64,000 bases of DNA from an uncultured Bifidobacteriaceae bacterium. GTDB lineage: Bacteria; Actinomycetota; Acidimicrobiia; IMCC26256; PALSA-555. The stretch is from NCBI GenBank assembly GCA_964555735.1, contig CAZKTS010000288.1, positions 1,069 through 65,068 on the forward strand, in the 5' to 3' direction. A model generated the notes under the pieces. The model worked only from the letters and a program-made list of their open reading frames with translations, was not told the DNA's origin and did not search any database. Of the stretch, positions 18,363-61,654 are shown piece after piece (positions within the stretch are counted from its first letter, which is position 1; the number at the start of each line of letters is the position of its first letter). The position numbers and the translations under genes were made by a program.

Positions 18363-18480
18363 GGCGCCTAATCGCCGCCCTACGGCGCCCGGAGCCGCCA
18401 GGGCACCCTAGCCCCCATCCGGGGCCGCCGGACGCGCCCACGGGGCGATTAGGCGCCCTGGCGGGTTGCGCGGCGGTGGT
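18362..18480 (+). repeat. composite intergenic repeat, copy A
   Basis: Contains GGCGCCTAATCGCC (18363-18376) and its exact inverse GGCGATTAGGCGCC (18444-18457), the 17-mer GGGCACCCTAGCCCCCA (18401-18417) and a CCCTACGGCGCC variant of the core. Confidence 0.75.
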
Positions 18481-24744: not shown

Positions 24745-24868
24745 GCGCCTCGCTGCCGCGCCTTTGGGCCCCGGGCACCCTAGCCCCCACGGGGCGCCCA
24801 AAAGCGCGCCTACGGGGCGCCCACGCGGGCTCCCGGGGTGCTCCGGGGCCGTGGGGTCACTGGGGCCC
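24745..24868 (+). repeat. composite intergenic repeat, copy B
   Basis: Contains the identical 17-mer GGGCACCCTAGCCCCCA (24773-24789), AAAGCGCGCCTACGGGG (24801-24817), and ACGGGGCGCCCA twice (24789-24800 and 24812-24823). Confidence 0.75.
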
Positions 24869-25677: not shown

Positions 25678-26582
25678 GTGGGTGGGGCTCGGGCTACTGG
25701 GGCGCCGGGCCATGGGGCGCGGGTGGCATCGACGCGCTGCGCATGCTCGGCGCTGAGGCGGTGCGCGAGAACGTGGTCCGCGTGACGTTCAACGCTGCGC
25801 CGCTGTTCGATCGGCTGCTCGGGCCCAACGATGCTAGCGACCCGAAGCGGTTTCAGATCGTGGCGGACGTCTTGACGATCGGGCGCGACGGCGAGCCCGC
25901 GCGGCCGGTGTTGCCGGTGCTGGTTGAGGTGGCGCCGATCGAGCTGTCGTTCGGCGCGGTGCTCGATGTGACGACGGACCGGCCGCTCTCACCCTGGCCG
26001 ACGTACTACCGGATTTCGGCGACGCAGCTCGTGGTGGCGGCGACGGGCGGGCTACTCGACCCGGCGGCGAGCAGCCGCGAGTTCCAAGGGCTGTATCGGG
26101 AGCTGCGCGTGCCGACGACGGCGATCGCGACGCCGAGTCAGGACGTGGCGAGCCCGGCGGCCGGGTTCGACGTCGTGCCGGGGCTGCCGGCGCTGACGCC
26201 GAGTGATGAGGAGCTGCAGCTCGGGACGTACGTGCCGGGCGATGATGGCGACTACGCAACCGACTCGGGGATCGCACAGCTGCGCAAGCGGATCTTCCGG
26301 CGGTTTGTGACGGCGCCTGGTGCGTTCGCGCACTTGCCGGGATACGGGCTCGGGGTCCGGTCGTACGGCAAGCGGCTGGGGACGGCGGCGGTGCGTCAGC
26401 AGCTGGTCGCCACGGCGATGGCGCAGCTGCGCGAAGAGCCGGACGTGGTCGCGGTGAAGGTGCGCGCTGAGACGGACGCGCGAAACCCGAGCATCACGCG
26501 GTTCTTTGTCGACGTGAAAGCGGCGGCCGCGCCCGACTGGGTGACGTTCGACTACTCGTTTGGAGGGACTGGAAATGGCTGA
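25674..26582 (+). CDS. baseplate wedge protein with C-terminal gp25/GPW-like domain
   Basis: GTGA overlap. The C-terminus RKRIFRRFVTAPGAFAHLPGYGLGVRSY ... LREEPDVVAVKVRAE ... ITRFFVDV resembles GPW/gp25. Lies directly upstream of the J-like gene. Confidence 0.55.
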   Translation: MSGWGSGYWGAGPWGAGGIDALRMLGAEAVRENVVRVTFNAAPLFDRLLGPNDASDPKRFQIVADVLTIGRDGEPARPVLPVLVEVAPIELSFGAVLDVTTDRPLSPWPTYYRISATQLVVAATGGLLDPAASSREFQGLYRELRVPTTAIATPSQDVASPAAGFDVVPGLPALTPSDEELQLGTYVPGDDGDYATDSGIAQLRKRIFRRFVTAPGAFAHLPGYGLGVRSYGKRLGTAAVRQQLVATAMAQLREEPDVVAVKVRAETDARNPSITRFFVDVKAAAAPDWVTFDYSFGGTGNG

Positions 26583-32120: not shown

Positions 32121-32503
32121 CCACGCCGAGCGATGCGCTGCTCGCGGCGCGCGATCTGTCGCGCATCGCGCTTGCATCGGCCACGACCTTGCAAGACCCG
32201 GTGTCTCGCACCCTGGACGACTTGGCGCGCCGCGCAGGCACGACCCGCGCGCTGGTGGCGACCGCGTGCGGCGTCGACCCTCTGCTGTTCGAGCGCGTCG
32301 ATCAGGGGCGGCAGCCGATGCCGCTATCGGTGGTGGTGTCGATCGCGTCGTTGCTGCGGATCCCGATGTGGATGGCGCGCGCGGCGTGCCGGTCGTGGAC
32401 CGACCAGATCGACGCGCGGCTGCGCAACCCGAAGCCGCCGCGCCCCATTCTCGGGGATTCGTTGCCGGCGGTGTCCATCGTGGCGACGGTGCCGCAGCCT
32501 TGA
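32117..32503 (+). CDS. XRE-family helix-turn-helix protein (128 aa)
   Basis: GTGA overlap. RTLDDLARRAGTTRALVATACGVDPLLFERVDQGRQPMPLSVVVSIASLLRIP fits the Cro/C1-type HTH pattern. Confidence 0.6.
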   Translation: MTTPSDALLAARDLSRIALASATTLQDPVSRTLDDLARRAGTTRALVATACGVDPLLFERVDQGRQPMPLSVVVSIASLLRIPMWMARAACRSWTDQIDARLRNPKPPRPILGDSLPAVSIVATVPQP

Positions 32504-32513
32504 CGGGACCACG

Positions 32514-32840
32514 ATGGAGGCGCGCGCTGTAGAGCTGCTCGGGTCGCTGGGGTTGCCAGGGCTGGTCATCGGCGGCCTGTGGCTGTACGCGCGGCAGCTG
32601 CACCTCCGCAACGAGCAGATCATGGATCTGCGGCTGCGTGAGGCGCAGGACTATGCCTCGGTGCTGCGGGCTATCGACGAGACGCGCGTGCGTGAGGAGC
32701 GCGAGCGTGGAGATCGGATCTTGGCGGTGCAGCGCGAGGTGCACGCCACGATCAAGCAGCTGACGATGTTGGTGGAGCGCGAAGAGCGCCGCGACGATCG
32801 CCTAGACCGCCGCGGGTCATGGAGACAGGACGATGAATAA
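32514..32840 (+). CDS. N-terminal TM + charged coiled-coil protein (holin/BhlA-like or i-spanin-like architecture)
   Basis: LLGSLGLPGLVIGGLWLYA is a TM segment, followed by REAQDY...REERERGDRILAVQREVHATIKQL. Confidence 0.5.
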   Translation: MEARAVELLGSLGLPGLVIGGLWLYARQLHLRNEQIMDLRLREAQDYASVLRAIDETRVREERERGDRILAVQREVHATIKQLTMLVEREERRDDRLDRRGSWRQDDE

Positions 32841-33030
32841 CCAACGCACGATCGCGGACGTGGCGCGTGAGATGGAGATCGAAGAGGAGTCGGCGCGGCT
32901 CGAAGCGCGCGCGCGTGCACTGGTGGCGCGTGCCGCGGCGCTCCTCGACGGGCAGGCGCGGCGTCAATCCGGCCAGCATCGGCTCGATCTACCGCCGGAA
33001 ATGATGGCGCTTCGCAAGCCATCGGCCTGA
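32833..33030 (+). CDS. hypothetical small helical protein (65 aa)
   Basis: Overlaps the upstream stop. High GC3. Confidence 0.4.
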   Translation: MNNQRTIADVAREMEIEEESARLEARARALVARAAALLDGQARRQSGQHRLDLPPEMMALRKPSA

Positions 33031-36351: not shown

Positions 36352-36521
36352 GCGGCGACGTGAGCGTGAGCTACGTCTACGTCCCGGCCCTGCCGAGTGA
36401 TCTGCCGCCGCTGCGCGTGGCCGAGGGGAAGATCGTAGTCGATACGGCGATCGCGTTGACGCCGGCGGAGCTGATCGTGCTCGACGCGCACTTCGCGGCG
36501 CGCGGATACCGGAGGGAGTGA
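36348..36521 (+). CDS. small protein (57 aa), paralog 1 of a tandem pair
   Basis: ATGA overlap with the fibre stop. The C-terminus reads ...IALTPAELIVLDAHFAARGYRRE. Confidence 0.5.
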   Translation: MSGDVSVSYVYVPALPSDLPPLRVAEGKIVVDTAIALTPAELIVLDAHFAARGYRRE

Positions 36522-36522
36522 G

Positions 36523-36693
36523 ATGTGGTCCTACGGCTACACGTTCAAGGTGCCTGAGATGCTCGGGCTGCCGCCCGAGCTGCAGCCGACGCAGGGCAAC
36601 GAGGTCGTCTTCACGTCGAGCGTCGAGCTGACGCCTGAGCAGAAGTCGGCGCTCGATGCGTTCATGATCGGCAAGGGTTACGATCCCGAGTGA
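36523..36693 (+). CDS. small protein (56 aa, not in the ORF track), paralog 2 of a tandem pair
   Basis: My own translation gives MWSYGYTFKVPEMLGLPPELQPTQGNEVVFTSSVELTPEQKSALDAFMIGKGYDPE. It shares the V.LTP.E...LDA....GY..E tail with 36348. Confidence 0.5.
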   Translation: MWSYGYTFKVPEMLGLPPELQPTQGNEVVFTSSVELTPEQKSALDAFMIGKGYDPE

Positions 36694-36709
36694 CGCCGGT
36701 GTGTGCGGT

Positions 36710-36719
36710 GCGCTATTCG
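36710..36719 (+). promoter_or_regulatory. class-E box GCGCTATTCG, 7 nt before ATG 36727
   Basis: gtGCGCTATTCGtgagtgcATG. Confidence 0.45.
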
Positions 36720-36726
36720 TGAGTGC

Positions 36727-36987
36727 ATGCGCGTCTCTCTGGTCGATGTGCTGGAGGCGGTGCGAGCGGAGTTCGCGCGCGGTCATCACCCGCGGGCGCT
36801 CGTGCGGCTGGGTGATGGGTGGATCGAGTGCTGGACGCTGACGGTGGCGCCTGAGCGGGCCGCCGGCCTGCGGCGTCACCTCGGGTCGCGCTGCCGGTGG
36901 CCGGCGGCGGGGATGCCCGAGGTGCCCGGGTACACGCCGATCGCGCTGATCCACGGCGATCTGCTGATTCTCGCCCGCCAACCTTGA
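36727..36987 (+). CDS. hypothetical protein (86 aa)
   Basis: ATG 36727 lies 7 nt after a GCGCTATTCG box. Confidence 0.45.
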   Translation: MRVSLVDVLEAVRAEFARGHHPRALVRLGDGWIECWTLTVAPERAAGLRRHLGSRCRWPAAGMPEVPGYTPIALIHGDLLILARQP

Positions 36988-37012
36988 CAGCCCTATGCAC
37001 CGGGCATATACC
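36984..37012 (+). promoter_or_regulatory. canonical sigma70-type promoter TTGACA-N17-TATACC upstream of the UvrD-like helicase operon
   Basis: Perfect -35 TTGACA at 36984-36989, a 17-nt spacer, TATACC at 37007-37012, ~38 nt before ATG 37050. Confidence 0.6.
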
Positions 37013-37049
37013 TGGGGCGCGGCTGAGATGGCGGCCGCGGAGGCACCCC

Positions 37050-38561
37050 ATGATCAACACGTTCCTGGCTCACAGTGATTCGGCGGATGAGGCGGCACCG
37101 GCGTCGGCGCCGGTGAAGGCGGCGCGCGAGTGGTCGCCATACCAGGCGGCTGTGTTCGCGGACGTCGAGAGCGGCGAGGGCAACACGATCGTCTCGGCGC
37201 GCGCCGGAAGCGGCAAGACGTCGACGATCGTGGAGGCGCTGCGCTACTTGCCGCCCGGCAGCAAGGCGCTGCTGGTCGCCTTCAACAAGAATATCGCGCA
37301 GGAGCTGTCCACGCGCGCGCCCAAGGGTGTCGACGTGATGACGCTGCACAGCTACGGGCTGCGCGCCGTCAAGGCGCGCAACCGCGCCGCGGAGATCGAC
37401 AGCGACAAGTCGCGCAACATCGCACGCGAGCTGTACGGCGATGATGCGAAGTTCTTCGGGGCGGCCTTGCCCAAGGCGGTCGGGCTCGCGAAGAACTTGC
37501 TCCTCTCGACGGCGGAGGAGATCGACGCGGTGCTCGACGGGTACGGGGTCGACATTCCGGGGCCGGCGACGGCGGCGGCGCGGGCGAAGTTCGTGGCCGC
37601 GGTGGTCGCGGTGGTCGAGGCGAGCAAGCGCGACCTCGACACGATCGACTTCGACGACATGATCTGGCTGCCGGTGGTCCTGCGCTTGCCGACGCCGCGA
37701 TACGCGCGGGTCTTTGTGGACGAAACGCAAGACCTCAACCCCTGCCAGATCGAGCTGGTGCTCGGGTCGGTGGCGACCGGCGGCCGCGTGACGGCGGTGG
37801 GCGATGACCGGCAGGCGATCTACGGCTTCCGCGGCGCCGACCGCAACGCGATGGAGCGCGTCCGCGCCGCACTCGGCGCGAAGGTGCTGCCGCTGTCCAT
37901 CACGTATCGCTGCGCGACGGCGATCGTGAAGGTGGCGCAGGCGATCGTGCCCGACCTGGAGGCGGCGCCGGGTGCGGCGGAGGGTAGCGTGGCAGAGCTG
38001 CCGTGGGCGCAGGCGTCGCAGCGGCTGGAGGCGGGCGACATGGTGATCTCGCGCACGAACGCGCCGCTGGTGCGGGAGCTGCTGCGCGCGGTGCGCGCGG
38101 GGCGCCGGGCGACGATGCTCGGGCGCGACTTCGGCCAGGCGTTGACCGGGCTGATTCGCAAGAGCAAGGCGGCGACGATCGCGCAGCTCGACGCCTACAT
38201 CGACCAGTGGGAGGCGCGCGAGGTGGCGCGGCTGGACGCGAAGGGGCGCGACACGGGCGCGGTGCGCGATCGCGCCGACACGCTGCGCGCGCTGGCCGAG
38301 GGGGCGACCTCGCCCGAGCAGGTGATCTCGACGATCGAGAGGTACTTCGCCGAGAACGCGGCGAAGGACGCGGTCGTGTTCTCCTCGACTCACAAGGCGA
38401 AGGGCTTGGAGGCGCACCGGGTGGTGCTCTTCGCCGACACGTACCGGCCGGGTCGCTCGGTCGAGGAGGATAACCTCTGGTATGTCGCGGTGACGCGCGC
38501 CAAGGTGGAGCTGGTGCTGGCGTACGGCGCCGGGCAGGACGACGAGCAGGGGGCGGCGTGA
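37050..38561 (+). CDS. UvrD/PcrA/Rep-family SF1 helicase (503 aa)
   Basis: Motifs ARAGSGKTST (I), VFVDETQDLNP (II), VGDDRQAIYGFRGA (III), ITYRC (IV), STHKAKGLEAHRVVLF (V), YVAVTRAKVELVL (VI). A canonical promoter lies upstream. Confidence 0.9.
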   Translation: MINTFLAHSDSADEAAPASAPVKAAREWSPYQAAVFADVESGEGNTIVSARAGSGKTSTIVEALRYLPPGSKALLVAFNKNIAQELSTRAPKGVDVMTLHSYGLRAVKARNRAAEIDSDKSRNIARELYGDDAKFFGAALPKAVGLAKNLLLSTAEEIDAVLDGYGVDIPGPATAAARAKFVAAVVAVVEASKRDLDTIDFDDMIWLPVVLRLPTPRYARVFVDETQDLNPCQIELVLGSVATGGRVTAVGDDRQAIYGFRGADRNAMERVRAALGAKVLPLSITYRCATAIVKVAQAIVPDLEAAPGAAEGSVAELPWAQASQRLEAGDMVISRTNAPLVRELLRAVRAGRRATMLGRDFGQALTGLIRKSKAATIAQLDAYIDQWEAREVARLDAKGRDTGAVRDRADTLRALAEGATSPEQVISTIERYFAENAAKDAVVFSSTHKAKGLEAHRVVLFADTYRPGRSVEEDNLWYVAVTRAKVELVLAYGAGQDDEQGAA

Positions 38562-39154
38562 TGCCGCCCCGGGTCCGCACTCGCAAGGGGTCGCATCCGG
38601 TCGGGGAGATGATCTGGTCGTACGGGTCGAATCTCTACACGCCGCAGGCGCTGAGCCGGTGCCCGAGCGCGGTGCGGGTGGGTCCGGCGGCGCTGCACGA
38701 CCACGCGATCGAGTTCGTCGGGTACTCGGCGGGCTGGGGCGGCGGGGTCGCGACGGTGATCCCGGCGCACGGGTCGCAGGTCGACGGCGAGCTGATGATC
38801 GTGCGGGAGAGCGATCTGGCGCGGCTCGATGCGTACGAGGGGGCGCCGGACGTCTACCAGCGGATCAAGGTGGAGGTGGTGGCGACCGCGACCGACGGCG
38901 CGCCGTACCGCGTGCCGTGCTGGACGTATCGGCACACTCGCGGGGTGAGTGCGCGGCGCGACCCGAGCGCGGCCTACATCGCGCGCATCGCGGCGGGATA
39001 CGGGCGACTCGGCTTCGATCTGACGCCGGTGATCGCGGCGATGGGCCGCGCGAATGCTGCGCGGTGGACACAGACTCAGCTGACGTGGGAGCGAGAGCAT
39101 GCGACAAATCGAGATCCGAATCCTGGCCCTGGACCCGGCCGCCGTAGTCGGTGA
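38558..39154 (+). CDS. gamma-glutamylcyclotransferase (GGCT/AIG2-like fold) with ~65-aa C-terminal extension
   Basis: WSYGSNL...RCPSA ... WGGGVATVIP ... VDGELM ... LARLDAYEG ... YQRIKVEV ... PCWTY is collinear with the human GGCT pattern (YGSNL, PSA, WHGGIATI, LDEQEG catalytic Glu). Start is GTG 38558, ATG 38561 or ATG 38609. Confidence 0.85.
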   Translation: MMPPRVRTRKGSHPVGEMIWSYGSNLYTPQALSRCPSAVRVGPAALHDHAIEFVGYSAGWGGGVATVIPAHGSQVDGELMIVRESDLARLDAYEGAPDVYQRIKVEVVATATDGAPYRVPCWTYRHTRGVSARRDPSAAYIARIAAGYGRLGFDLTPVIAAMGRANAARWTQTQLTWEREHATNRDPNPGPGPGRRSR

Positions 39155-39398
39155 GGTGCGCGAGCTGGCGCTAGTGCGCGGCTGGCAGTGGGGCGGCGCG
39201 CGAGACAATCCGATCGGCGCGACGGCGGGCACGGTGGCGCCGGAGACGGCCGACCAGATCCGTGCGCTGCGGGCGCAGGGGCTCTCGATCGGGGCCATCG
39301 TGGCGACGCTGAATGAGCAGGGCGTGACGGGCCCGCGCGGCGGGCGGTGGTGGCCGCGGACGGTACACCTCGCGCTGCGGCGGCTGGGGCTCTCGTGA
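39099..39398 (+). CDS. small DNA-binding protein resembling the 'Recombinase' wHTH domain of serine recombinases (no catalytic domain)
   Basis: IRALRAQGLSIGAIVATLNEQGVTGPRGGRWWPRTVHLALRR matches the i..l...G.s...Ia..Ln..g..t.rGg.W....V..il pattern. The alternative start is GTG 39156. Confidence 0.55.
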   Translation: MRQIEIRILALDPAAVVGEVRELALVRGWQWGGARDNPIGATAGTVAPETADQIRALRAQGLSIGAIVATLNEQGVTGPRGGRWWPRTVHLALRRLGLS

Positions 39399-40393
39399 CT
39401 CGCGTGGTGACGGGCGGCCCGGAGCTGCGCGCGGCGCTGCAATCGACCACGGCGGAGGCGCTGGCGCTCGAATCTGAGCCGATCGCTGAGGTGCAGCGGT
39501 GCGTGGCCGACGTCATGCGCCTGCTGGCCGACGTGCCAATCGCGCCCGAGGTGCCATCGGCGGCGGTCGTGCAAGCGGTCATCGACTGGCTGTGGGAGCG
39601 GCGGGTGGTCGTGCGCGCGCCGACGGGCGCGACGCTGGCGGCGGCGGCGATCGTGGCCGAGTCGCGGGACATCCAGCTGCGATGGCACTGGGGCGTCCGG
39701 TGGGTGGCGGCGGCGTATCCGACGGTCGACCTCGCCACGCCGCAGTTCGTCGCGGCGCTGCTGTGCTCGGGGCACGACCCCGAGCAGGAGCTGCGAGCGC
39801 CGTGGCCGGCGTTCCTGCTGCGCATACCGCCCGGGACGGGCCTGCCGGCTGAGCTGATCATGGTGGCGCGCGTGACCGACCCGGACGAAGGGCTGGCGAT
39901 CGTGGCGCTCGGCCGGAGCTATTCGTGGTGGCAGCGCGTGACGGTGGCGCAGCTGTGCGCGCCGGACTTCGCGCTCGACCAGCCCGACACGGCGACGGAG
40001 GTGCCGATGGATGCGGCCGACGTGCGGGTGCAGACCGCGCTGCGTGCGCTGGTGCGCAGCGTGCTCGCGTGGGTGGCCGACCCGGAGCGGGTGCAGGCGG
40101 CGCGTGTGGGGCCATCGAGCCCGAAGGCTGAGCGGGCGCGCGCGGCTGCGCGTCGTGGTCTTCCGCTCGATCGGTACGTGCTGACGGCTCCGATCCGAAT
40201 CGATGCGCGCCCGGTGGTAGCGGCGTACCTCGCCGGCGAGAGGGCGCGGCCTGGTGTGCGGTCGCTCGTGCGCGGGTTCTGGCGGCGGCAGGCGTGCGGT
40301 GCTGGGCGCGTGGATCGGGTGTGGCGGTGGATCGAGCCGCACTGGCGCGGCGGCGAAGACCTCCCGATCGCGGTGCGGGTGCATCGGCCGTGA
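39395..40393 (+). CDS. hypothetical protein (332 aa)
   Basis: GTGA overlap. High GC3. No motif recognised. Confidence 0.55.
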   Translation: MTRVVTGGPELRAALQSTTAEALALESEPIAEVQRCVADVMRLLADVPIAPEVPSAAVVQAVIDWLWERRVVVRAPTGATLAAAAIVAESRDIQLRWHWGVRWVAAAYPTVDLATPQFVAALLCSGHDPEQELRAPWPAFLLRIPPGTGLPAELIMVARVTDPDEGLAIVALGRSYSWWQRVTVAQLCAPDFALDQPDTATEVPMDAADVRVQTALRALVRSVLAWVADPERVQAARVGPSSPKAERARAAARRGLPLDRYVLTAPIRIDARPVVAAYLAGERARPGVRSLVRGFWRRQACGAGRVDRVWRWIEPHWRGGEDLPIAVRVHRP

Positions 40394-40566
40394 GGCGGGC
40401 GCGGCACCCGACGATCGAGCCGATGACGGTCCAGATCCGTACCCGGGCCGAGGTCGGCGACAACGACCGCACGGTCGAGCTGCTCACACGCCTGGCGAGG
40501 AGCCGAGGGTGGGAGCTGACCGTCACGCGGCGGCACCCGCGCCGGGCGCCCCGCCAGCCCGCCTAA
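40390..40566 (+). CDS. hypothetical small protein (58 aa)
   Basis: GTGA overlap (alternative start ATG 40423). High GC3. Last ORF before the non-coding region. Confidence 0.35.
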   Translation: MRRARHPTIEPMTVQIRTRAEVGDNDRTVELLTRLARSRGWELTVTRRHPRRAPRQPA

Positions 40567-40790
40567 TCGCCGCGCTGGCGCGCCTTCGAGTGGTCGCCCA
40601 CCCCTGACCCGCCCGCCCGGGCAAAGCGCGCCTACGGGGCTCCTACGGGCCCCGGGCGCCAATGGGCCTAATCGCCTCGCTGGCGCGTCGGGCGAGGCTG
40701 GGGCACCTAGCACCCGTCCGGCGCCCAAAAGCGCGCCTACGGGGCGCCTGTGCGGCCCGGCGGGCGGTCTTGGCCCTGGGGCGAGGGGAA
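40558..40790 (+). repeat. composite intergenic repeat, copy C (double)
   Basis: Contains CCTAATCGCC.CGCTGGCGCG twice (~40563 and ~40667), AAAGCGCGCCTACGGGG twice (40623-40639 and 40728-40744) and GGGCACCTAGCACCCG (40701-40716). Confidence 0.75.
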
Positions 40791-40793
40791 GTG

Positions 40794-40864
40794 CCGCCCG
40801 CGTACCCGTCGGTCGTGCGGTCGAGGGGATGGGCGCTCCGACATCGGGCCGGGTACGCGGGCGG
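40794..40864. repeat. 14-bp perfect inverted repeat (CCGCCCGCGTACCC / GGGTACGCGGGCGG), 43-nt spacer
   Basis: Arms at 40794-40807 and 40851-40864. Confidence 0.75.
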
Positions 40865-40947
40865 CGAGGTGCAGCCTACCACGGGCGGCCGCGCTCGATC
40901 GGGGTCGGGGCTTGGCCGGTCCTTGCCGGTCTTCGACAAGCCTCGGC

Positions 40948-40969
40948 GAGCGCATGTCCGCATGCGCTC
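40948..40969. repeat. 9-bp stem / 4-nt loop hairpin GAGCGCATG-tccg-CATGCGCTC
   Basis: Perfect palindrome arms. Confidence 0.75.
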
Positions 40970-41070
40970 GCGCGCGCCGCCCGGCGGGCGGCGCAATCGC
41001 GTCACGGCCGGCGCGGATCGGCCTACGGCCGATAAGCCTCTTCGATGATTCCCTGAGGAGAATCTCTGAC

Positions 41071-41128
41071 GCGCACGGGCGCGCTTGCGCGCACGTACGC
41101 ATGTACCCGCGTGGGCGCGCCCGTGCGC
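41071..41128. repeat. 14-bp perfect inverted repeat (GCGCACGGGCGCGC / GCGCGCCCGTGCGC), 30-nt spacer
   Basis: Arms at 41071-41084 and 41115-41128, followed by (CGCACA)n-like repeats. Confidence 0.75.
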
Positions 41129-41154
41129 ACACGCACACGCACGCGCGGGCGCGC

Positions 41155-41183
41155 GAGGCGGCGGCACCGGCGGCGCTCGGGGC
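41155..41183 (+). repeat. 29-bp perfect direct repeat, copy 1
   Basis: GAGGCGGCGGCACCGGCGGCGCTCGGGGC. Confidence 0.8.
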
Positions 41184-41190
41184 GGCCGCG

Positions 41191-41210
41191 GTGTCTACCC
41201 GAGTAGACAC
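41191..41210. repeat. 8-bp stem / 4-nt loop palindrome GTGTCTAC-ccga-GTAGACAC
   Basis: Perfect arms. Unusually A/T-containing for this DNA. Confidence 0.75.
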
Positions 41211-41344
41211 CGATCGGCGGGGCTGGGGGGAACTGGTGCAACGTGGCGGGATCGCGAGGCGAATCGGCATCGCCGCTCGACGCGCATGCACTAGCCTCGC
41301 GGTGTATGCGGTATGTGAGTGAGCCGAACTAGCGGCCCGCGCTA

Positions 41345-41373
41345 GAGGCGGCGGCACCGGCGGCGCTCGGGGC
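41345..41373 (+). repeat. 29-bp perfect direct repeat, copy 2
   Basis: Identical 29-mer 190 bp downstream of copy 1, and 34 nt before the class-E box at 41407. Confidence 0.8.
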
Positions 41374-41406
41374 TGGGGCTGAATTAGCGGGGCCGGCCGC
41401 AGTGGC

Positions 41407-41416
41407 GCGCTATTCG
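41407..41416 (+). promoter_or_regulatory. class-E box GCGCTATTCG, 7 nt before ATG 41424 (SF2 helicase)
   Basis: ggcGCGCTATTCGgggtgggATG. Confidence 0.5.
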
Positions 41417-41423
41417 GGGTGGG

Positions 41424-42890
41424 ATGGCTGTGCGGGTGCGTGCGACGCTGGAGCTAGCCCTGGCTGACGTGCCGGCGGAGCTGGTGGACGCGCTGCGCGC
41501 GGAGTTCACGGTCGCGAACCCGGTTCGCGCGAAGCTGGAGGCGATGGGGCGGCGCAACCGTGCGATGGCGTGGCGCGCGGCGAAGACGCCGGCTGAGCTG
41601 CGGTTCTGGCGCGAGGCGGGGGGTGTGCTGCATCTACCGCGGGGCGCGGTGTCGCGAGTGCGGCGGGTGGCGGAGGCGCACGGGGTGCGGCTGACGTGGC
41701 GCGATGAGCGGGAGGCGGGCGGGGACTTCTACGCGCGTGCGATCGCGCATCGCCCGGCGAGTCGCGAGGCGGATGGTGGGGCGCTGCGGTGGTATCAGAC
41801 CGAGGCGATTGCGCGGGCGATGGATCGGCAGTGCGGGATCATTCGCGCGCCGACGGGGTCGGGCAAGACGACGATCGCGCTGGGGCTGGTGGCGGCGGTT
41901 CGGGTGCCTACGCTGGTCGTGGTGTGGTCGGGCGCGCTATTCGACCAGTGGGTGCAGCGACTGCGCGATGAGTTGGGGCTGCGCGCCGATGAGATTGGGC
42001 GATACGGTGCGGGGCATGATCAGGTGCGGCCGGTGACGGTGGCGATGCAACAGAAGCTCTGGCGCGGCATGTCGCGGGACTTCGTCGCGCGGTGGGGGAT
42101 GGTGGTGATCGATGAGGTGCAGCGCGCGCCGGCGCGCACGTTCGCCGAGGTGGTGGGCCAGATCCCGGCGAAGTACCGGATCGGGATCAGCGCAGACGAG
42201 ACGCGACCCGATGGGCTGGAGGCGGTGACGTACGACGTGTTCGGGCCGCTGGTGTACGAGGTGTCGCGCGATGACTTGATCGCGGACGGCAGCGTGCGCG
42301 ACGTGGAGATCCGGGTGGTGCCGACGGAGTTTCGCGCGGACTGGTATCGCGATCAGCTAGCGCGGCGGCAGATCCCAGACATCAAGCGGTTGCTCGATGA
42401 GATGGAGGCGGACGACGCGCGCAACGAGCTAGTGGCCGAGGTGATGCAGGGCGAGGTGCGCGAGGGCCGGCAGGTGGCGATGGTGGCGTCGCGGGTCGCG
42501 ATCTGTCGGCGGGTAGATGCGGCGTTGGCGGCGCGGCGGGTGGGGTCGGGCGTGGCGGTGGGCGAGGACGGCGCTGCGGCGGGCGAGGCGATCGCGCGGT
42601 TGAAGTCGGGCGAGCTGCGCGCGTTGTGCGCGAGCATCCAGCTATTCGGAACGGGCGTGGACGTGCCGGCGTTGTCGCGCGGCGTGCTGGCGACTCCGAT
42701 CGGGTCGAATCGCCAGCTGTTCGGCCAGGTGCGCGGGCGGCTGTCGCGACCTGGTGAGCCGGCGGTGCTCTATGTGCTGTGGGATCGACACGTCTACAGC
42801 GCGAACATGCTGCGGCGGCTGGAGGCGTGGAATCGGCGCGTGTTGGTGCGCGTCGGTGGTGGCTGGGTCGATGCGAGTGAGGTGGAGTAA
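41424..42890 (+). CDS. SF2 DEAD/DEAH-box (DExH) helicase, type III restriction Res-like/XPB-like
   Basis: WYQTEAI (Q), RAPTGSGKTT (I), VIDEVQRAP (II), SADETR (III), GTGVDVP (V), QVRGRLSR (VI). Confidence 0.85.
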   Translation: MAVRVRATLELALADVPAELVDALRAEFTVANPVRAKLEAMGRRNRAMAWRAAKTPAELRFWREAGGVLHLPRGAVSRVRRVAEAHGVRLTWRDEREAGGDFYARAIAHRPASREADGGALRWYQTEAIARAMDRQCGIIRAPTGSGKTTIALGLVAAVRVPTLVVVWSGALFDQWVQRLRDELGLRADEIGRYGAGHDQVRPVTVAMQQKLWRGMSRDFVARWGMVVIDEVQRAPARTFAEVVGQIPAKYRIGISADETRPDGLEAVTYDVFGPLVYEVSRDDLIADGSVRDVEIRVVPTEFRADWYRDQLARRQIPDIKRLLDEMEADDARNELVAEVMQGEVREGRQVAMVASRVAICRRVDAALAARRVGSGVAVGEDGAAAGEAIARLKSGELRALCASIQLFGTGVDVPALSRGVLATPIGSNRQLFGQVRGRLSRPGEPAVLYVLWDRHVYSANMLRRLEAWNRRVLVRVGGGWVDASEVE

Positions 42891-43848: not shown

Positions 43849-43894
43849 GACGTGCAAGTTCTCACAGACAGAGGAGAGGGTTAATCATGGCTGA
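43814..43894 (+). pseudogene. truncated 5' copy (26 codons) of the zinc-ribbon gene at 44247
   Basis: MTCKECHGCRLV then diverges, compared with MMCKECHGCRLVGWSG at 44247. It lies in copy 1 of the ~105-bp direct repeat. Confidence 0.5.
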
Positions 43895-44162
43895 TTTCTC
43901 ATGGGCGTTGGCGGAGCTGAGGGCAGGGCGGCTGGTAGCTCGGGAGGGGTGGAACGGGAAGGGCCAGTGGCTCGCGCTCCCGAGGGCGTATCCGCGCGGC
44001 ATTCCGATCGACAAGAACACGGCTGAGGCGACGGGGATCCCCGAGGGGACGGTCTGCAGGTTCTTGCCGTACATCATCGTGCGGACGGTCGATGGGGCTT
44101 TCGTGCCGTGGCAGGCGTCGCAGACGGACGTGATGGCTGAGGACTGGGCGGCGCCCCCATGA
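43887..44162 (+). CDS. DUF2829-family protein (Tad2-like candidate anti-Thoeris nucleotide sponge)
   Basis: FSWALAELRAGRLVAREGWNGKGQWL ... LPYIIVRTVDGAFVPWQASQTDVMAEDW matches the DUF2829 hallmarks (A...lk.Gk.v.R.gW.gkg ... pW..SqtDllAeDW). GGAGAGG RBS. GC is lower than in the neighbours. Confidence 0.85.
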   Translation: MADFSWALAELRAGRLVAREGWNGKGQWLALPRAYPRGIPIDKNTAEATGIPEGTVCRFLPYIIVRTVDGAFVPWQASQTDVMAEDWAAPP

Positions 44163-44176
44163 GGCGCGTTCCGCCC

Positions 44177-44281
44177 GGCGCGCATTCGCTGAGGAGGTTT
44201 CGCGGCAGGTGTTGCGGGATGACGCGGAGAAGGACGCGCGCGGCCGATGATGTGTAAGGAGTGCCACGGGTGCCGACTGGT
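44177..44281 (+). repeat. direct repeat copy 2 (~105 bp) flanking the DUF2829 gene
   Basis: Duplicate of the RHH gene's 3' end plus the zinc-ribbon gene's 5' end. Confidence 0.85.
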
Positions 44282-44747
44282 CGGCTGGAGCGGGGCGGGG
44301 CCGCACTTCTGCCGCGCGTGCTCGCGAGAGGTGACGCTGCTCGAAGCGTTCGAGGTCATCACGGCGGCATGGCGTGAGCAGCGCTCTCGTGCCGAGCGAG
44401 CCGAGCACGCGAGGGATGAGGCGGCAGCGTGGCTGCTGACGATCGCGGAGATGACCAGCGACTACATGAAGGCGGTCGTGCTCGCGAAGCAGGCGCTGCG
44501 CGGGCGCTCGCCGAGTGCGCGGCTGCTTGCGCGGGTACAGGCCGGGGATGCTCTTTCTCACAGCCCGGAGGACGAGAGACTCGTGGCCGCCCGGGTAGCC
44601 GAGGTCATGGGTGGCGAGAAGCCAAGGCCGCTCAATAGTCGTGCGTGGGAGGAGCGAGCCGTGCGGGCCGAGGCTCGGTGTGCCGAGTATGAAGCTCGGC
44701 TGCAGCAGGTGCATGATGCGATTGAGCGACTCAGGGGTGACTCGTGA
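44247..44747 (+). CDS. zinc-ribbon + coiled-coil protein (166 aa)
   Basis: CKECHGC...FCRAC at the N-terminus, with a helical charged remainder. Confidence 0.55.
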   Translation: MMCKECHGCRLVGWSGAGPHFCRACSREVTLLEAFEVITAAWREQRSRAERAEHARDEAAAWLLTIAEMTSDYMKAVVLAKQALRGRSPSARLLARVQAGDALSHSPEDERLVAARVAEVMGGEKPRPLNSRAWEERAVRAEARCAEYEARLQQVHDAIERLRGDS

Positions 44748-45046
44748 GAGTGAAACCCACTGACCCAAGGTGGACCGTGAGCGGGATTGGCGTCTTGACG
44801 CCGCGTCAGGCGCTGGAGATTGGGCTTGCGCGCGACGAGCACAATTGCAGGACGTGGACCCGCGCGAGTGGCGTTGCTCAGCTGTCGCATATCGTGACGG
44901 ACTGTGCCGTGCGAGTCGTGCAGGTCCAGCGATTCCGCGCCTCTGGGTCCGCGACACGCGGCGATCGCGTGATGATGGGGCGGGCACTGCGCACTCTCAA
45001 TGTCGCGGTCGATCTGTGGACCGAGTCGACGGGGCGGACGCCATGA
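44744..45046 (+). CDS. hypothetical protein (100 aa)
   Basis: GTGA overlap. Somewhat lower GC3. Confidence 0.4.
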   Translation: MRVKPTDPRWTVSGIGVLTPRQALEIGLARDEHNCRTWTRASGVAQLSHIVTDCAVRVVQVQRFRASGSATRGDRVMMGRALRTLNVAVDLWTESTGRTP

Positions 45047-45279
45047 GCGTGACGCTGCGGACGTTGCGGGTAGAGCGCCCGGACTGGGCGTGGACGGCCG
45101 AGCGCGCGGGGATGGGGTGGCGATATGTTGGAGCACGCGGAGGGCGGCAGGTGGTGGTTTTCGCGTGTGCGCGGCTGATCGGCGAGGATGAGTTTGCGAC
45201 GGAGTGGCGTGTGGATGATGGAGCCATCTCGCGGTCTTATGTGTCGTGGTGGCTGGAGTGCGAGGCGCGGTCGGCATGA
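45043..45279 (+). CDS. hypothetical protein (78 aa)
   Basis: ATGA overlaps at both ends. Confidence 0.5.
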   Translation: MSVTLRTLRVERPDWAWTAERAGMGWRYVGARGGRQVVVFACARLIGEDEFATEWRVDDGAISRSYVSWWLECEARSA

Positions 45280-49434: not shown

Positions 49435-50444
49435 AGCACCGGGTCGATCTGACCAAGGCACGCCAGGAGTGCGTGGTGGCGGCGCTGAAGCGCCACGGGC
49501 TGGCCCCTCCGGGGGCTGGCTCGTGGGCGCTCGCGCGGCAGGTGTCGACGCTGGTGGCCTACTATCGCGCGCACACACCGCGCGCGCGCATCGCGGACTG
49601 CGAGACGTGCGGGGGCGAGAGCGACAGCGGCGAAGCGGCGTGCCCGTACTGCGGCGACGCGGACGGCGAAGCGTCGGCCGAGGTGGAGGCGGTGGAGCCG
49701 GTGGCGCCGGTGGTGGGCGGCCTGCAGGTCGTACCCGCGGCCGGGTCGATGGTGGCGGCGGCGGAGCCGCCGAGCGGGTCGACGGAGCGTGACCTCGATC
49801 GGGCCGTGGCGAAGGTGCTCCGGCTGCGCCGCGACGCGGCGAGCAGCATCTGGGAGCTGGCGGTTGCGGTGCGGGAGGTGAGCGAGTCGTCGATCTGGAA
49901 GCTGCGGCGCGATGAGACGGGCGCGCCGAAGTGGACCAGCTGGGGGCGGTTCGCCGTGGAGGAGCTGGGCGTGTCGCCGGCCTACAGCTACCAGCTGATC
50001 GAGGTGGCCAAGACCTTCACGCGGGCGGAGGTCGACGAAGTCGGGATCAAGAAGCTGATCGTCTCGCTGCGCGTCTCTCACCACGACCGCGGCGACATCT
50101 TGGCGGCGGCTCGCGCGGGTGAGTCGGTGTCCGAGCTGGAGGCGCGCGTGGAGACGGTGCTCGATGGCGGCGAGGCGGGTGGTGACGATGGCGGCGCTGG
50201 CGGTGGCGGCGAGGCGGGTGCGACGCCGCGGCCGCGTCTCGCGCGTGGCGTCACGGCAGCCATGCTGATGCGACGGGTCACGATCCCGCTGTACCGCCCT
50301 GGGTCCATGGCGCGGGCTCGCCGGCTGGCCGACACGCCGCGCGGTGAGGAGCGGCTGGTCAACGGCGTCAAGCAGGTATTTGTGGTTGACGTCGACTCCG
50401 ACGGCGGGCTGGTGCTGATCGTGGAGCGGCTCCGCGAGACATGA
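49431..50444 (+). CDS. DNA-binding protein: zinc ribbon + ParB/KorB-like HTH region
   Basis: CETCGG...CPYCGD, followed by IWELAVAVREV...WTSWGRFAVEELGVSPAYSYQLIEVAKTF...ESVSELEARVE. Confidence 0.4.
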   Translation: MKHRVDLTKARQECVVAALKRHGLAPPGAGSWALARQVSTLVAYYRAHTPRARIADCETCGGESDSGEAACPYCGDADGEASAEVEAVEPVAPVVGGLQVVPAAGSMVAAAEPPSGSTERDLDRAVAKVLRLRRDAASSIWELAVAVREVSESSIWKLRRDETGAPKWTSWGRFAVEELGVSPAYSYQLIEVAKTFTRAEVDEVGIKKLIVSLRVSHHDRGDILAAARAGESVSELEARVETVLDGGEAGGDDGGAGGGGEAGATPRPRLARGVTAAMLMRRVTIPLYRPGSMARARRLADTPRGEERLVNGVKQVFVVDVDSDGGLVLIVERLRET

Positions 50445-52981
50445 TCGAGGCGCTCAACGCCTGGTCAGAGCATGACGGGCGGGTGTACTACGCCGCGCGC
50501 GATGCGGACGGCCGGGTACGAGTGCACGACGCGGGGCGGGTCGTGTACTCGTACCTCCGCGGTGACAGTGACCCTGAGCTGATTCGCGAGATCGAGCGGT
50601 CGCGGGTGCTGCGTGCGGTGGAGCGCGCAGGCGACTGGTGGCGCCTGCACTGGTCCGCGCCGTGGGCGCGCGATGCGGCGTGCGGGCCTGACGGGTGGTT
50701 CGCGTCGAAGCGAGTGCCGACGTTCGAGGCTGATCTGCCGGCGGTGCGGCAGTGGGCGATCGAGCGCGACGTGCAGGTGCAGCGGCCGCGCCTCTGCTAT
50801 TTCGACATCGAGACGGACGCGCGCGCTGGGATCGCCAACAAGGAGCGCATGCGCATCCTGTGCTGGACGGTGCAGAGCGCCGACGGTGAGCGCGTGCAGA
50901 GCGGCATGCTGGAGGCTGACACGGATGCGGCGGAGCGCGACTTGCTGCGCGCGTTGTGGCGCGAGTTCGATCGGTACGATCAGGTCGCGGCGTGGTACGG
51001 CGACGGCTTCGACTTCCCGGTGGTGTTTGCGCGCAGTAAGCGCGCGGGTATCTCGGTCGACGCGCGGCGGTGGCTGTGGCTGGACCACCTTGAGGTGTTC
51101 CGCCGGATGAATATCTCGTCGTCTGAGAGTGGCGAGGAGAAGCAGTCGCTGGCGCTGCAGGCGATTGCGATGGCGGTGCTCGGTGAGGGCAAGCTGCCGG
51201 GGTTCGGGTACGCCGAGATTTACCGCGCGTGGGCGGCGGGCGGCGATGACCGCGATCGGCTGCTCGCGTACAACGTGCGCGACGTCGACTTGATGCGGCG
51301 GGTTGAGGACCGGACGGGTTACATCGAACTGCTCTTCACGCTGTGCGCGACCACGGGCGTCTTCCCTGATACTCGCGGGATCCGGCCGATGCCGCAGGTC
51401 GAGACGTACGTGCAGCGGCTGGCCAACGCGCGCGGCGACCGCCTGCCGACGCAGTATCGGGGTGGGGATGAGAGCAAGTATCGCGGCGCGTATGTGATGG
51501 AGCCGCGGCGTACGGGGCTGATCCGTGACCGCGTGCACGTCTGCGACTTCGGCTCGATGTATCCGAGCATTGTGCAGACCTGGAATATCTCGCCGGAGAT
51601 GATCGTGGAGAAGCCGCCCGAGCCGGTGTTCCCCGCGTATCTGTCGCACCTTGCGGCTGAGTGGAAGCCGCCGCCGCGGCCGGCTGAGTACGCCGAGGCG
51701 CCGAAGACGCGCGTGTGGTTCCGCCAGGCGGAGCGCGGGCTGCTACCGCGCGCGCTCGATGCGCTGGGCGCGCTGCGTGCGCAGTGGCAGGCGCGCAAGG
51801 CGGAGCTGCCGCCTAACACGCCGGAGTGGCGTGACGCGGACGCGCGAGCGACCGCGTACAAGATCAACGCCAACAGTTTTCCGGGTGTGATCGGCGCGTC
51901 GGTGTCGCGGCTCTATTCGCGCGAGGCGGCCGAGAGCGTGAGCACAACGGGGGCGTGGCTGCTGGAGCAGGTCGACCGTGCGGCGCGCGAGCACGCCGGG
52001 CTCGATCCGTTCTACGGCGACACGGATTCCAGCATGGTCGCTGGCTGTAGTGATGAGACTTTCGCGGCGTTCGTCGCGTGGTGCAACGGCGATCTGCTGC
52101 CGCGGTTGGCGCGCGAGCAAGGTTGCGCGGGCGCGTGCACGCTGAAGCTGGCGTACGAAAAGGCGTTCGAGCGGATGCTCTTGCTGAGCGCGAAGCGGTA
52201 CATCGCGCGGCTGGCGCACTACAAGGGGCAGGCGCCGACGGCGGCGACGAAGCCGGAGATCAAGGGGATCGAATACAAGCGCGGCGACTCGCTGCGCCTC
52301 ACGCGGCAGATGCAGGCGATCGTGATCGACCTCATGATGGGCGGCGGGCTGGTGCGACCGCGCCAGGAGCGGTGCGAAGACGCTGAGGAGACGTATGTGG
52401 CGCTAGTCGAGGCGTGGCGCGACCTCGTGCTGACGGGCCCGCTGGAGCTGGCCGACGTGGTGCGGTCGCAGCGGCTGACGCAGCCGCTGAAGGCGTACGC
52501 GGGCAAGGTCAAGCTCGATGGGACCGAGAGCGGCGGCATGCCGCATGTCCGGGTGGCGCGGGTGCTGGCTGAGCGCGGTGAGGCGATCGGGGTCGGGGCG
52601 CGCGTGGAGTACGTGGTGGTCGATGGCTCGGTGAGCCCGGCGGAGGTGATCCCGGCGTCGGACTGGACCGGCGAGTGCGACCGCTTCGCGCTGTGGGAGT
52701 CGGCGGTCTGGCCGCCGACCCGGCGATTGCTGGAGTCGGCGTTTCCGGCGGGCCCGTGGGCGCGGTACGACCGGGTCCGGCCGAGCAAGCGCCGGCCGGC
52801 GGCGCACGCCGACAAGCTGCCGCTGTTCGAGGCGCCCACGCGCCGCGCCAAGGCGCCGGCGCGCCCGGCCGCCCCAATGCCCCAGGCGGCGCCCGAAAGC
52901 GCGCCTACGGGGCTCCCAGGCGGCCAGATCGGGCTCTTCGGGGCGGCGACCGCTGCTCGGCGCGGCAGGAGGCGCGGGTGA
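50441..52981 (+). CDS. family B DNA polymerase with 3'-5' exonuclease domain and C-terminal clamp-binding-like motif
   Basis: Exo I YFDIETD, Exo II LAYNVRDVDL, motif A CDFGSMYPSIV, motif B KINANSFPGV, motif C YGDTDS. The C-terminal QIGLF lies at nt 52925-52939. Confidence 0.95.
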   Translation: MIEALNAWSEHDGRVYYAARDADGRVRVHDAGRVVYSYLRGDSDPELIREIERSRVLRAVERAGDWWRLHWSAPWARDAACGPDGWFASKRVPTFEADLPAVRQWAIERDVQVQRPRLCYFDIETDARAGIANKERMRILCWTVQSADGERVQSGMLEADTDAAERDLLRALWREFDRYDQVAAWYGDGFDFPVVFARSKRAGISVDARRWLWLDHLEVFRRMNISSSESGEEKQSLALQAIAMAVLGEGKLPGFGYAEIYRAWAAGGDDRDRLLAYNVRDVDLMRRVEDRTGYIELLFTLCATTGVFPDTRGIRPMPQVETYVQRLANARGDRLPTQYRGGDESKYRGAYVMEPRRTGLIRDRVHVCDFGSMYPSIVQTWNISPEMIVEKPPEPVFPAYLSHLAAEWKPPPRPAEYAEAPKTRVWFRQAERGLLPRALDALGALRAQWQARKAELPPNTPEWRDADARATAYKINANSFPGVIGASVSRLYSREAAESVSTTGAWLLEQVDRAAREHAGLDPFYGDTDSSMVAGCSDETFAAFVAWCNGDLLPRLAREQGCAGACTLKLAYEKAFERMLLLSAKRYIARLAHYKGQAPTAATKPEIKGIEYKRGDSLRLTRQMQAIVIDLMMGGGLVRPRQERCEDAEETYVALVEAWRDLVLTGPLELADVVRSQRLTQPLKAYAGKVKLDGTESGGMPHVRVARVLAERGEAIGVGARVEYVVVDGSVSPAEVIPASDWTGECDRFALWESAVWPPTRRLLESAFPAGPWARYDRVRPSKRRPAAHADKLPLFEAPTRRAKAPARPAAPMPQAAPESAPTGLPGGQIGLFGAATAARRGRRRG
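52899..52912 (+). repeat. 14-mer core GCGCGCCTACGGGG inside the DNA polymerase 3' end
   Basis: Exact copy. The flanks (GAAAGCGCGCCTACGGGGCTCC) match the first core of copy C. It encodes PESAPTGLPG just before QIGLF. Confidence 0.7.
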
Positions 52982-60803: not shown

Positions 60804-61045
60804 AGCCCGCGCGGGTCGTGGACCTGGAGGCGCGGCGGCAGGCGCTGGTCGAGCGCGAGCGCGGGTCGCAGATCGAGCGCACGGAGGCGGTGCTGCGGCG
60901 GGTGATCGCGCTGATCGAGACGGCGGGGCTGTCGCCGATCGAGCGGGTGGCGGTGTGTGATGCGGCGGTGCAGATCGTGGGCGAGGGGTGCACGCGGGCG
61001 CAGCTGATCGCGTCGTCGGTGCTGGCCGAGGAGATTTTCGGGTGA
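60800..61045 (+). CDS. hypothetical protein (81 aa)
   Basis: GTGA overlap. Confidence 0.45.
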   Translation: MKPARVVDLEARRQALVERERGSQIERTEAVLRRVIALIETAGLSPIERVAVCDAAVQIVGEGCTRAQLIASSVLAEEIFG

Positions 61046-61626
61046 GTGACGCGGCGGTGCTTGCGGCGGCGCTGTTGGCGCTGCCGGTCGCGTGGTATCC
61101 GCCGGGGCGCGAGCCGGAGACGGAGGCGCAGCGCGTCGCGCGGTACGGTGTGATCGCGGATGCGATCGACCATGCGAGCCGGCGGGCGACGACGTGTGAG
61201 GGTGCCGGGTGCGCGCCGCTGTGGCCGTGGCCGCGGGATGAGCTGGTGGCGGTGCTGGCGGCTCAGGGCTGGTGGGAGACGCGCTATGCGCACCACGTCC
61301 ACGCTGGGCGGTGCCGGCGGCACGAGTGCGACACGCGCAACGGGCGCGCGCGGGCGGTGAGCCCGTGGCAGATCCAGATGACGGCGCTCGTACCGCGCGC
61401 GGAGTGGTCGACGCTCACGGGAACGGGGTTCGAGCCGACCGAGCGCGCGGCCTACGCGGCGGCGAAGGTGCTGGCGTCGTCTCGCGCGCGATGCGCGAAG
61501 TCTGAGGCGTGGGCGGCGCCCACGATCGCGATGTACGCGACGGGGGCGCGATGCCGGTGGCGGGGCGCTCGGGTGCGAGCGGCGACGGTGGGGCGGCTGC
61601 TGGTGGCGCTGCGCGCTACTCGGTGA
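61042..61626 (+). CDS. secreted lytic-transglycosylase-like protein (SLT-like)
   Basis: N-terminal hydrophobic signal AAVLAAALLALPVAW. GWWETRY (candidate catalytic Glu) and GRARAVSPWQIQ (compare A.GlmQi). Confidence 0.4.
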   Translation: MSDAAVLAAALLALPVAWYPPGREPETEAQRVARYGVIADAIDHASRRATTCEGAGCAPLWPWPRDELVAVLAAQGWWETRYAHHVHAGRCRRHECDTRNGRARAVSPWQIQMTALVPRAEWSTLTGTGFEPTERAAYAAAKVLASSRARCAKSEAWAAPTIAMYATGARCRWRGARVRAATVGRLLVALRATR

Positions 61627-61654
61627 GGGCGCCGAGGCGCGACTGGAGGCGGAC

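Follow-up and report, generated by a model that had tools for sequence, protein, structure and literature searches.

The window analysed here is a 64,000-nt stretch of contig CAZKTS010000288.1, and its source is an uncultured, high-GC, myovirus-like tailed phage of about 83 kb without a close cultured relative. Between its tail-fibre genes and its replication module, this phage carries five closely packed genes, and we lean, if only slightly, towards reading the region as a coupled mosaic accessory cassette that includes a factor for counter-defence or for conflict between mobile elements. The candidate factor is the product of the fourth gene, a 332-aa (amino acid) protein that quite probably represents a remote branch of the AcrVA2/FinQ superfamily. 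The genes of the cassette are as follows:

37050 to 38561, plus strand, UvrD-like helicase of 503 aa
38561 (or 38609) to 39154, plus strand, gamma-glutamylcyclotransferase-fold protein (GGCT) of 197 (or 181) aa
39099 to 39398, plus strand, helix-turn-helix (HTH) protein of 99 aa
39395 to 40393, plus strand, AcrVA2-like protein of 332 aa
40390 (GTG start) or 40423 (ATG start) to 40566, plus strand, small open reading frame (ORF) of 58 or 47 aa, with a coding-like GC content at third codon positions (GC3) of 0.92

Successive genes overlap by 1 nt (helicase and GGCT), 56 nt (GGCT and HTH) and 4 nt (HTH and 332-aa), while the small ORF overlaps the 332-aa gene by 4 nt when read from its GTG or follows it after a 29-nt gap when read from its ATG. 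The first four genes were also called independently on Logan contigs of the same phage. Such tight packing is in line with coupled translation from one transcription unit, and, judged from their coordinates, the five genes are predicted to be translationally coupled, in agreement with the preliminary description of this DNA, which had proposed five coupled genes.

That description had seen no recognisable motif in the 332-aa protein, a statement that did not hold once remote-homology searches and structure prediction were run, as the protein has a large family, a conserved C-terminal motif and an AcrVA2-like predicted fold. HMMER, run exhaustively over 1.84 billion cluster representatives, recovered 1,729 relatives at E ≤ 1e-3 (717 at E ≤ 1e-10), most of which are about 300 aa long and align over residues 90–331. 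The closest homologue (P0006; 47% identity, E = 5.6e-45) carries the Pfam family PF26125 (AcrVA2-like), as does homologue P0144, and P0007 gives a weak match to the same family. PF26125 also marks all 120 relatives listed for a Shewanella phage protein annotated as AcrVA2, including a Moraxella bovoculi protein whose numbering agrees with that of published AcrVA2. In an alignment of 80 family sequences, W103 is invariant (80/80) and the C-terminal motif reads roughly LVRGHW(K/R)xQxxGxG...EPYWRGxExxPI. The AlphaFold model built on the same alignment (mean predicted local distance difference test score, pLDDT, 82; predicted template-modelling score, pTM, 0.82) was compared with the PDB by Foldseek, and the top three matches were all AcrVA2 chains (7ci2_A, 7ci1_B and 7ci1_A; E = 2.9e-4 to 5e-3, probability 0.99–1.0), aligned at full length over 342–354 columns; the next-ranked match had an E-value of 0.36. 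AcrVA2 is thereby the best and sole significant structural match of the 332-aa protein, whose closest homologues fall in the same Pfam family. Moreover, hhalign aligned the family with a 34-sequence AcrVA2 profile at E = 0.0042 over 220 collinear columns, placing RGHW on RGHW and W103 within one residue of AcrVA2 W79.

AcrVA2 itself, which comes from a Moraxella bovoculi prophage (structures 7CI1 and 7CI2), is similar in size to the window protein (~320–350 aa), and both families have a conserved Trp in their N-terminal half as well as RGHW...YW as a C-terminal motif. The relatives of AcrVA2 and the family of the window protein are likewise genes of mobile elements, usually lone and with variable surroundings. 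AcrVA2 has been reported to bind the N-terminal polypeptide of Cas12a and to cause a translation-dependent loss of its mRNA; W79, D89, H286, R288 and H291 matter for this activity, H291A abolishes the down-regulation, and the ~1,800 AcrVA2 orthologues on mobile elements mostly occur without Cas12a (Marino et al., bioRxiv 10.1101/2022.11.29.518452).

Several observations count against a close equivalence with AcrVA2. The template-modelling score (TM-score) between the model and AcrVA2 is 0.38–0.43, with ~12% identity in the structural alignment, so the likeness is remote, and the hhalign probability against the AcrVA2 profile is only 8%. The 332-aa protein has no precomputed Pfam match of its own, and pattern scans of IMG/VR and GTDB genomes with it returned nothing, so that no close relative was found there. 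By the hhalign register, the HxR pair of AcrVA2 (H286, R288) corresponds to Ser 290 and Val 292 of the window protein, and the family has no conserved His or Arg at either position; the counterpart of H291 is F295. The N-terminal region of the window protein is also unrelated to that of AcrVA2, and this is the region that diverges most between AcrVA2 and its plasmid homologue FinQ as well. Residue 295, which corresponds to the His of RGHW, is His in 75 of the 80 aligned members and Phe in the other five, with nothing else found. Since the five Phe forms have His-bearing nearest neighbours, the change from His to Phe arose at least four times, and this pattern suggests that the position would need an aromatic ring rather than an acid-base catalyst. 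With F295, the window protein cannot be assumed to act exactly like AcrVA2.

Other searches were less informative. A word-indexed homologue search with the 332-aa protein returned only itself, tblastn of the protein against phages and plasmids gave nothing, and tblastn of the family member P0129 found nothing in plasmids and only weak matches in Propionibacterium phages. PDB sequence searches with the protein, with its profile and with its C-terminal consensus did not reach AcrVA2, and a Pfam scan of the protein and its family, with a model set that lacks PF26125, gave no match and no DNA-binding or NTPase domain. The bacterial genomes that encode relatives belong mostly to Myxococcota and Acidobacteriota, a skew that fits the GC content of the phage (71% in the window) and proves nothing about its host. 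On six Myxococcota contigs (L067, L068, L071, L072, L075 and L076), the AcrVA2-like domain stands at the C-terminal end of ORFs of ~770–1,100 aa, which may be fusions or, in such high-GC DNA, ORFs extended too far.

Given this family membership, the 332-aa protein would most likely bind a specific protein of the host or of a rival element, perhaps as a nascent chain, and so block its production or function; Cas12a is unlikely to be that target. Because the protein is AcrVA2-like, the idea of counter-defence gains support, and such a role of the cassette is plausible.

The pattern of conservation around this gene was followed across ~170 loci with members of the family, which included 26 from IMG/VR, 32 from GTDB genomes, 80 from metagenomes and several from exact-protein look-ups. 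Homologues of the GGCT and the 99-aa protein lie near a family member only at locus L037 and its fragment L038. The phage of locus L037 is related to that of the window (57% identity for the portal protein and for the product of the next gene), and the order there is GGACT, GGACT (46% identity), AcrVA2-like (47%) and HTH (42%). In that phage, the trio follows 7-deazaguanine synthesis genes and precedes the portal region, while that of the window stands between the tail-fibre and replication genes. Since both the gene order and the place in the genome differ, the trio was kept through rearrangement in one lineage only; as just two related phages have it, shared ancestry could also explain the linkage. 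Just upstream of the GGACT and AcrVA2-like genes, positions 434–6042 of L037 encode ParB_N, two PTPS (QueD-like) proteins, GTP cyclohydrolase I, DUF5591 and QueC, which looks like a 7-deazaguanine DNA-modification gene set; the same families gave no match among 24 window proteins scanned (mostly at 42.9–63.3 kb).

Elsewhere, the neighbours of family members vary widely. A UvrD-type helicase gene lies within ~3 kb of the family member at L015 and L127 and immediately downstream of it at L028, primase, DnaB or superfamily 2 (SF2) helicase genes adjoin it at L020, L021 and L034, and other members stand beside lysis genes or, at L015 and L040, DNA methyltransferase genes. In bacterial genomes, Hachiman, Shedu and AbiEii genes adjoin the family members, and these, like the methyltransferase genes, speak for an anti-defence setting. 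These variable neighbours fit a stand-alone accessory gene of mobile elements, as for the relatives of AcrVA2. The five genes had earlier been taken together as a module; with the GGCT and HTH genes linked to the family in one related phage only and a helicase nearby at three other loci, a conserved unit of five genes does not exist.

The second gene of the cassette encodes a GGCT-fold protein, which matches Pfam GGACT (PF06094) with 52.3 bits (cut-off 22.8; E = 1e-13) and phrog_2520 with E = 1.5e-18. Its conserved core begins at the Met codon at 38609, and a longer version would start from the ATG at 38561. Alignment with human GGCT (2pn7; E = 4.5e-9) shows that YGSNL and the LDxxEG Glu are conserved, the latter being presumably the catalytic residue, E98, of the human enzyme. 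With YGSNL and the Glu at the catalytic position retained, the enzyme is probably active. Human GGCT (C7orf24) and the phage proteins of phrog_2520 thus belong to the same fold family and share these features with the window protein, which differs from them by an extra C-terminal tail of ~50 aa without any match. A literature search for work tying phage GGCT to anti-defence found nothing.

The 99-aa protein encoded by the third gene matches the Pfam Recombinase family (PF07508) at residues 51–94 (E = 4e-5; 24.2 bits against a cut-off of 21.1), with a match to HTH_62 as well. The 44 matched residues correspond to positions 7–50 of the 102-position PF07508 model, and no resolvase domain is present; as the catalytic domain is missing, the product is regarded as a DNA-binding protein rather than a recombinase. 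AlphaFold, run on the single sequence, folds residues 45–99 into three helices (pLDDT 83–94) and leaves the N-terminal 45 residues uncertain, so the C-terminal part is predicted to be a three-helix HTH like the start of the 'Recombinase' domain of serine recombinases. A PDB sequence search and Foldseek gave nothing significant for this protein. Its homologue at L037 (9047–9376; E = 3e-16) lies two genes 5' of an unannotated 536-aa gene that precedes the portal gene, from which the idea of a small terminase arose; in the window, the 99-aa gene is not near packaging genes, and that idea was rejected as the main explanation. The last gene of the cassette, the small ORF, is similar in sequence to the first 35 residues of the 99-aa protein (Smith-Waterman shuffle p = 0.012) and of its L037 homologue (p = 0.001), and is probably a small paralogue of the N-terminal domain. 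BLASTP with the small ORF gave no match, and it was called on one Logan contig only.

It might be proposed that the GGCT, HTH and AcrVA2-like genes form a true functional unit, in which the HTH protein would act as an Aca-like autorepressor at a palindrome in the candidate promoter upstream of the helicase and the GGCT would assist the effector. The linkage of the three genes indeed outlasts the changed order and position between the window and L037, the genes overlap, the catalytic motifs of the GGCT are intact, and the promoter spacer holds a palindrome, TATGC-N5-GCATA (5-bp arms; 36994–37008), which is unique in the window. Against this, the combination has two instances only, in related phages, and no such partners were found at the ~170 other loci; the palindrome lacks significance, as 34% of shuffles hold one, visual inspection of the gap before the L037 trio showed none like it, and the HTH protein matches no family past a generic recombinase-type HTH. 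A working unit of three parts therefore appears unlikely.

The helicase that heads the cassette is an ordinary one. It matches UvrD-helicase (PF00580; 86.5 bits, E = 3.2e-24) as well as PF13361 (UvrD_C) and PF13538 above their cut-offs, so that Pfam upholds the earlier calls of a UvrD-like helicase, a GGCT and a Recombinase domain alike, and it matches phrog_1967, 'DNA helicase', with E = 3.7e-85. Its translation has helicase motifs I to VI, among them GSGKT, DETQD, GDDRQAIYGFRGA and VAVTRAK, and the best solved structures are Rep, UvrD and PcrA. The best NCBIfam model, the Rep equivalog, gives 96.7 bits against a cut-off of 951. By these matches, the protein is a complete member of the superfamily 1 (SF1) UvrD/Rep/PcrA family and not an orthologue of cellular UvrD, Rep or PcrA, and it presumably functions in DNA replication, recombination or repair. 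Many cultured phages carry homologues at 32–38% identity, such as gp71 of Pseudomonas phage NP1 and gp83 of Sphingomonas phage MMDA13 (phrog_1967), which align over 91–95% of the length and share the compact size of ~500 aa and the full SF1 motif set. RusA, ribonucleotide reductase or lysis genes stand next to these cultured-phage genes, and GGCT or AcrVA2-like genes do not. A role of the helicase as a defence protein was also considered and set aside, as PADLOC gave generic GajB-type matches only, which reflect the UvrD family.

A candidate promoter precedes the helicase gene:

36984 to 37012, plus strand, candidate sigma70-type promoter TTGACA-N17-TATACC, with the -35 hexamer at 36984–36989 and the -10 hexamer at 37007–37012

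By hexamer counting, this site scores 10/12 (TTGACA 6/6; TATACC 4/6, without T at position 6) and is the single best on both strands of the window, with four runners-up at 9/12; its earlier description as the best host-type promoter in the window holds for the hexamer match. Its spacer of 17 nt is optimal, and it lies in a 62-nt gap 5' of the helicase ATG at 37050, a gap wider than those among the small genes just upstream. GGAGG stands 7 nt 5' of that ATG, and a transcript from ~37019 would carry a leader of ~30 nt with this GGAGG. Moreover, TTGACA is scarce in the window (2 copies; 7.5 expected), its single coding-strand copy is this site, and all 100 shuffles of the window held at least 2; the scarcity may reflect an avoidance of stray -35 hexamers. 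Other results speak against the site. Of 60 windows simulated by a Markov model with matching composition, 27% contain a match of at least 10/12, so that the score is not significant alone, and a promoter scan that needs a spacer of 16–18 nt and, in the -10, A at position 2 and T at position 6 leaves the site out because it has no T at position 6. The TTGACA includes the TGA stop codon of the upstream ORF 36703–36987, which weakens the case. No similar promoter was found upstream of the related UvrD gene of L015 or the GGACT gene of L037, and no terminator was found between the upstream late genes and the cassette. RNA folding of the promoter region gave no significant z-scores, and the sigma70 consensus used for scoring may not be that of the host. 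Taken as a whole, the site is ordinary; its chance of being a working promoter is a little under one half, and that it drives the first genes expressed, as had been supposed, is less likely still. It would be a plausible internal promoter, and read-through from the upstream late genes is also possible.

The same site is central to the proposal that the five products cooperate in one dedicated host-takeover operon, which would be expressed first because no other host promoter in the window comes near the consensus. In keeping with it are the top hexamer score of the site, the lack of any second TTGACA on the coding strand of the 64 kb, the tight coupling of five genes and the presence of an AcrVA2-like gene. 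In addition, Stanley et al. are said to have described in 2019, in Cell, anti-CRISPR operons of Pseudomonas Mu-like phages that have their own strong early promoter inside late regions. However, the five genes are not co-conserved, the helicases of cultured phages stand in ordinary replication or recombination settings without a GGCT nearby, the -10 lacks its conserved T and a comparable match arises by chance as often as given above, and the non-coding region 5' of the replication genes would be at least as likely a place for early promoters. We regard such an operon as quite improbable. Of the earlier guess of host-takeover or counter-defence functions, the counter-defence part is strengthened, by the AcrVA2-like protein and by a Tad2-like gene 3.5 kb downstream, while the dedicated five-gene takeover operon is not supported, given the lack of co-conservation.

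Downstream of the small ORF, the cassette borders on a stretch with the following features:

40567 to 41423, no strand assigned, region of 857 nt without coding signal, between the cassette and the replication module
40552 to 40760, plus strand, two tandem copies of a composite repeat of ~105 nt (direct repeats D1 and D4), which begin at the stop codon of the small ORF

The 0.86-kb non-coding stretch noted earlier after the cassette is therefore real: none of the frames in 40567–41423 has a coding-like GC3, and four contigs have no gene call there. Across it, all contigs of the same phage are 100% identical and hence uninformative on its conservation. A 25-nt core of the repeat, GCGCCCAAAAGCGCGCCTACGGGGC, lies at 40721–40745, recurs exactly at 24794–24818 and with one mismatch at 52889–52913, and has degenerate copies near 8574 and 40616; its companion motifs GGCACCCTAGCCCCCA and GCCTAATCGCCGC are found at positions 18366, 18402, 24774, 40561 and 40666. 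The repeat family, with pieces that include those at ~8.57 and ~18.37 kb, is always on the plus strand and mostly just past gene ends, and CCTACGG occurs ten times, all on the plus strand, against 3.9 expected. These repeats may mark the ends of transcription units, as phage-specific terminators or regulatory elements. RNA folding of the repeats gave no significant z-scores, Rfam gave no credible match to the sequence (the sole match, at E = 0.86, was far under the gathering score), and a tRNA scan found none. Positions 18363–18455, in the gap between a gene that ends at 18362 and one that starts at 18517, also hold a perfect inverted repeat with 14-bp arms (GGCGCCTAATCGCC / GGCGATTAGGCGCC) and a 65-nt interior.

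The 857-nt region further contains a 35-nt repeat at 41149 and 41339 and a palindrome with 21-nt arms at 41071–41128, and it could hold a replication origin or the promoters of the replication genes. Five more stretches of ~0.85–1.1 kb in the window lack an ORF that passes the GC3 filter (25678–26559, 32121–33030, 44163–45245, 49435–50440 and 60804–61654); the gap after the cassette may therefore not be unique, although these five stretches could equally hold atypical genes.

The position of the 332-aa gene, between a helicase gene and a repeat-rich region followed by the genes for SF2 helicase, DnaB, primase and polymerase, raises the idea that the cassette is part of the replication or recombination module, with the 332-aa protein as a replication accessory or initiator acting on the adjoining non-coding region and its likeness to AcrVA2 being functionally uninformative. 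The primase, DnaB, SF2-helicase and UvrD-type neighbours at the six loci named above would be in line with this. The family nevertheless has no detected DNA-binding or NTPase domain, its other members stand beside lysis genes, methyltransferases and bacterial defence genes, its Pfam family and only solved structural match are those of AcrVA2, and at L021 the genes stand in this order although no large non-coding region is present. The chance that the protein serves replication in this way is accordingly poor.

A cassette with a counter-defence or inter-element conflict factor also bears comparison with acr-aca operons, which resemble the window in having a promoter-like site, a gene of an Acr family with a small HTH gene overlapping it, and a place at the edge of a late block. 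By analogy with the Aca repressors of anti-CRISPR operons, the HTH protein may control the expression of the cassette. The window differs from those operons in that its HTH is of the recombinase type, its candidate promoter lies 2 kb upstream, ahead of the helicase gene, and no significant operator repeat was found. The cassette would thus combine an ordinary SF1 helicase, then a trio conserved in the phage lineage, namely an apparently active GGCT-fold enzyme, an HTH protein and a divergent AcrVA2/FinQ-family protein, and finally the small HTH paralogue.

In the window as a whole, the coding-like ORFs are essentially all on the plus strand. By PHROG matches, the order 5' of the cassette is portal, major head protein, tail sheath and a Gly-rich 906-aa protein, and 3' of it SF2 helicase, DnaB, primase and family-A polymerase. 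Megablast of 36500–41500 against cultured phages found no close DNA relative, and the nearest cultured portal proteins, those of Ralstonia phages, reach only 28% identity. The same phage is also present on an 83,345-bp NCBI contig and in several Logan read-set assemblies. Two further genes are of interest:

43887 to 44162, plus strand, Tad2-like (Thoeris anti-defence 2) protein of 91 aa, Pfam E = 2.6e-22
62716 to 63276, plus strand, protein of 186 aa with a weak match to Sigma70 region 4, E = 4e-4, under the curated cut-off

The former is a second anti-defence candidate by its Pfam match. The latter, which has homologues at L021 and L023, may be a phage transcription factor and, if so, would bear on the promoters used by the phage.

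A bolder proposal, that the GGCT, HTH and AcrVA2-like proteins together with the small paralogue form an undescribed counter-defence unit, in which a member with F295 would act by binding alone on a non-CRISPR host target and the GGCT or HTH protein would add a second activity or regulation, is very improbable. If it were true, the recurrent change from His to Phe would point to a stacking rather than a catalytic role of this residue across the AcrVA2 superfamily.

No bacterial protein other than AcrVA2 is known to recognise a nascent polypeptide and trigger the loss of its mRNA. Most of its ~1,800 relatives occur in settings that have no Cas12a, which raises the question of their targets (Marino et al.). 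The present locus adds to this family a very divergent branch, found mainly in environmental phages and in genomes of Myxococcota and Acidobacteriota, together with a naturally occurring change at a position that matters for the function of AcrVA2. Moreover, it adds two conserved neighbours, the GGCT enzyme and the HTH protein, which could help to direct experiments.

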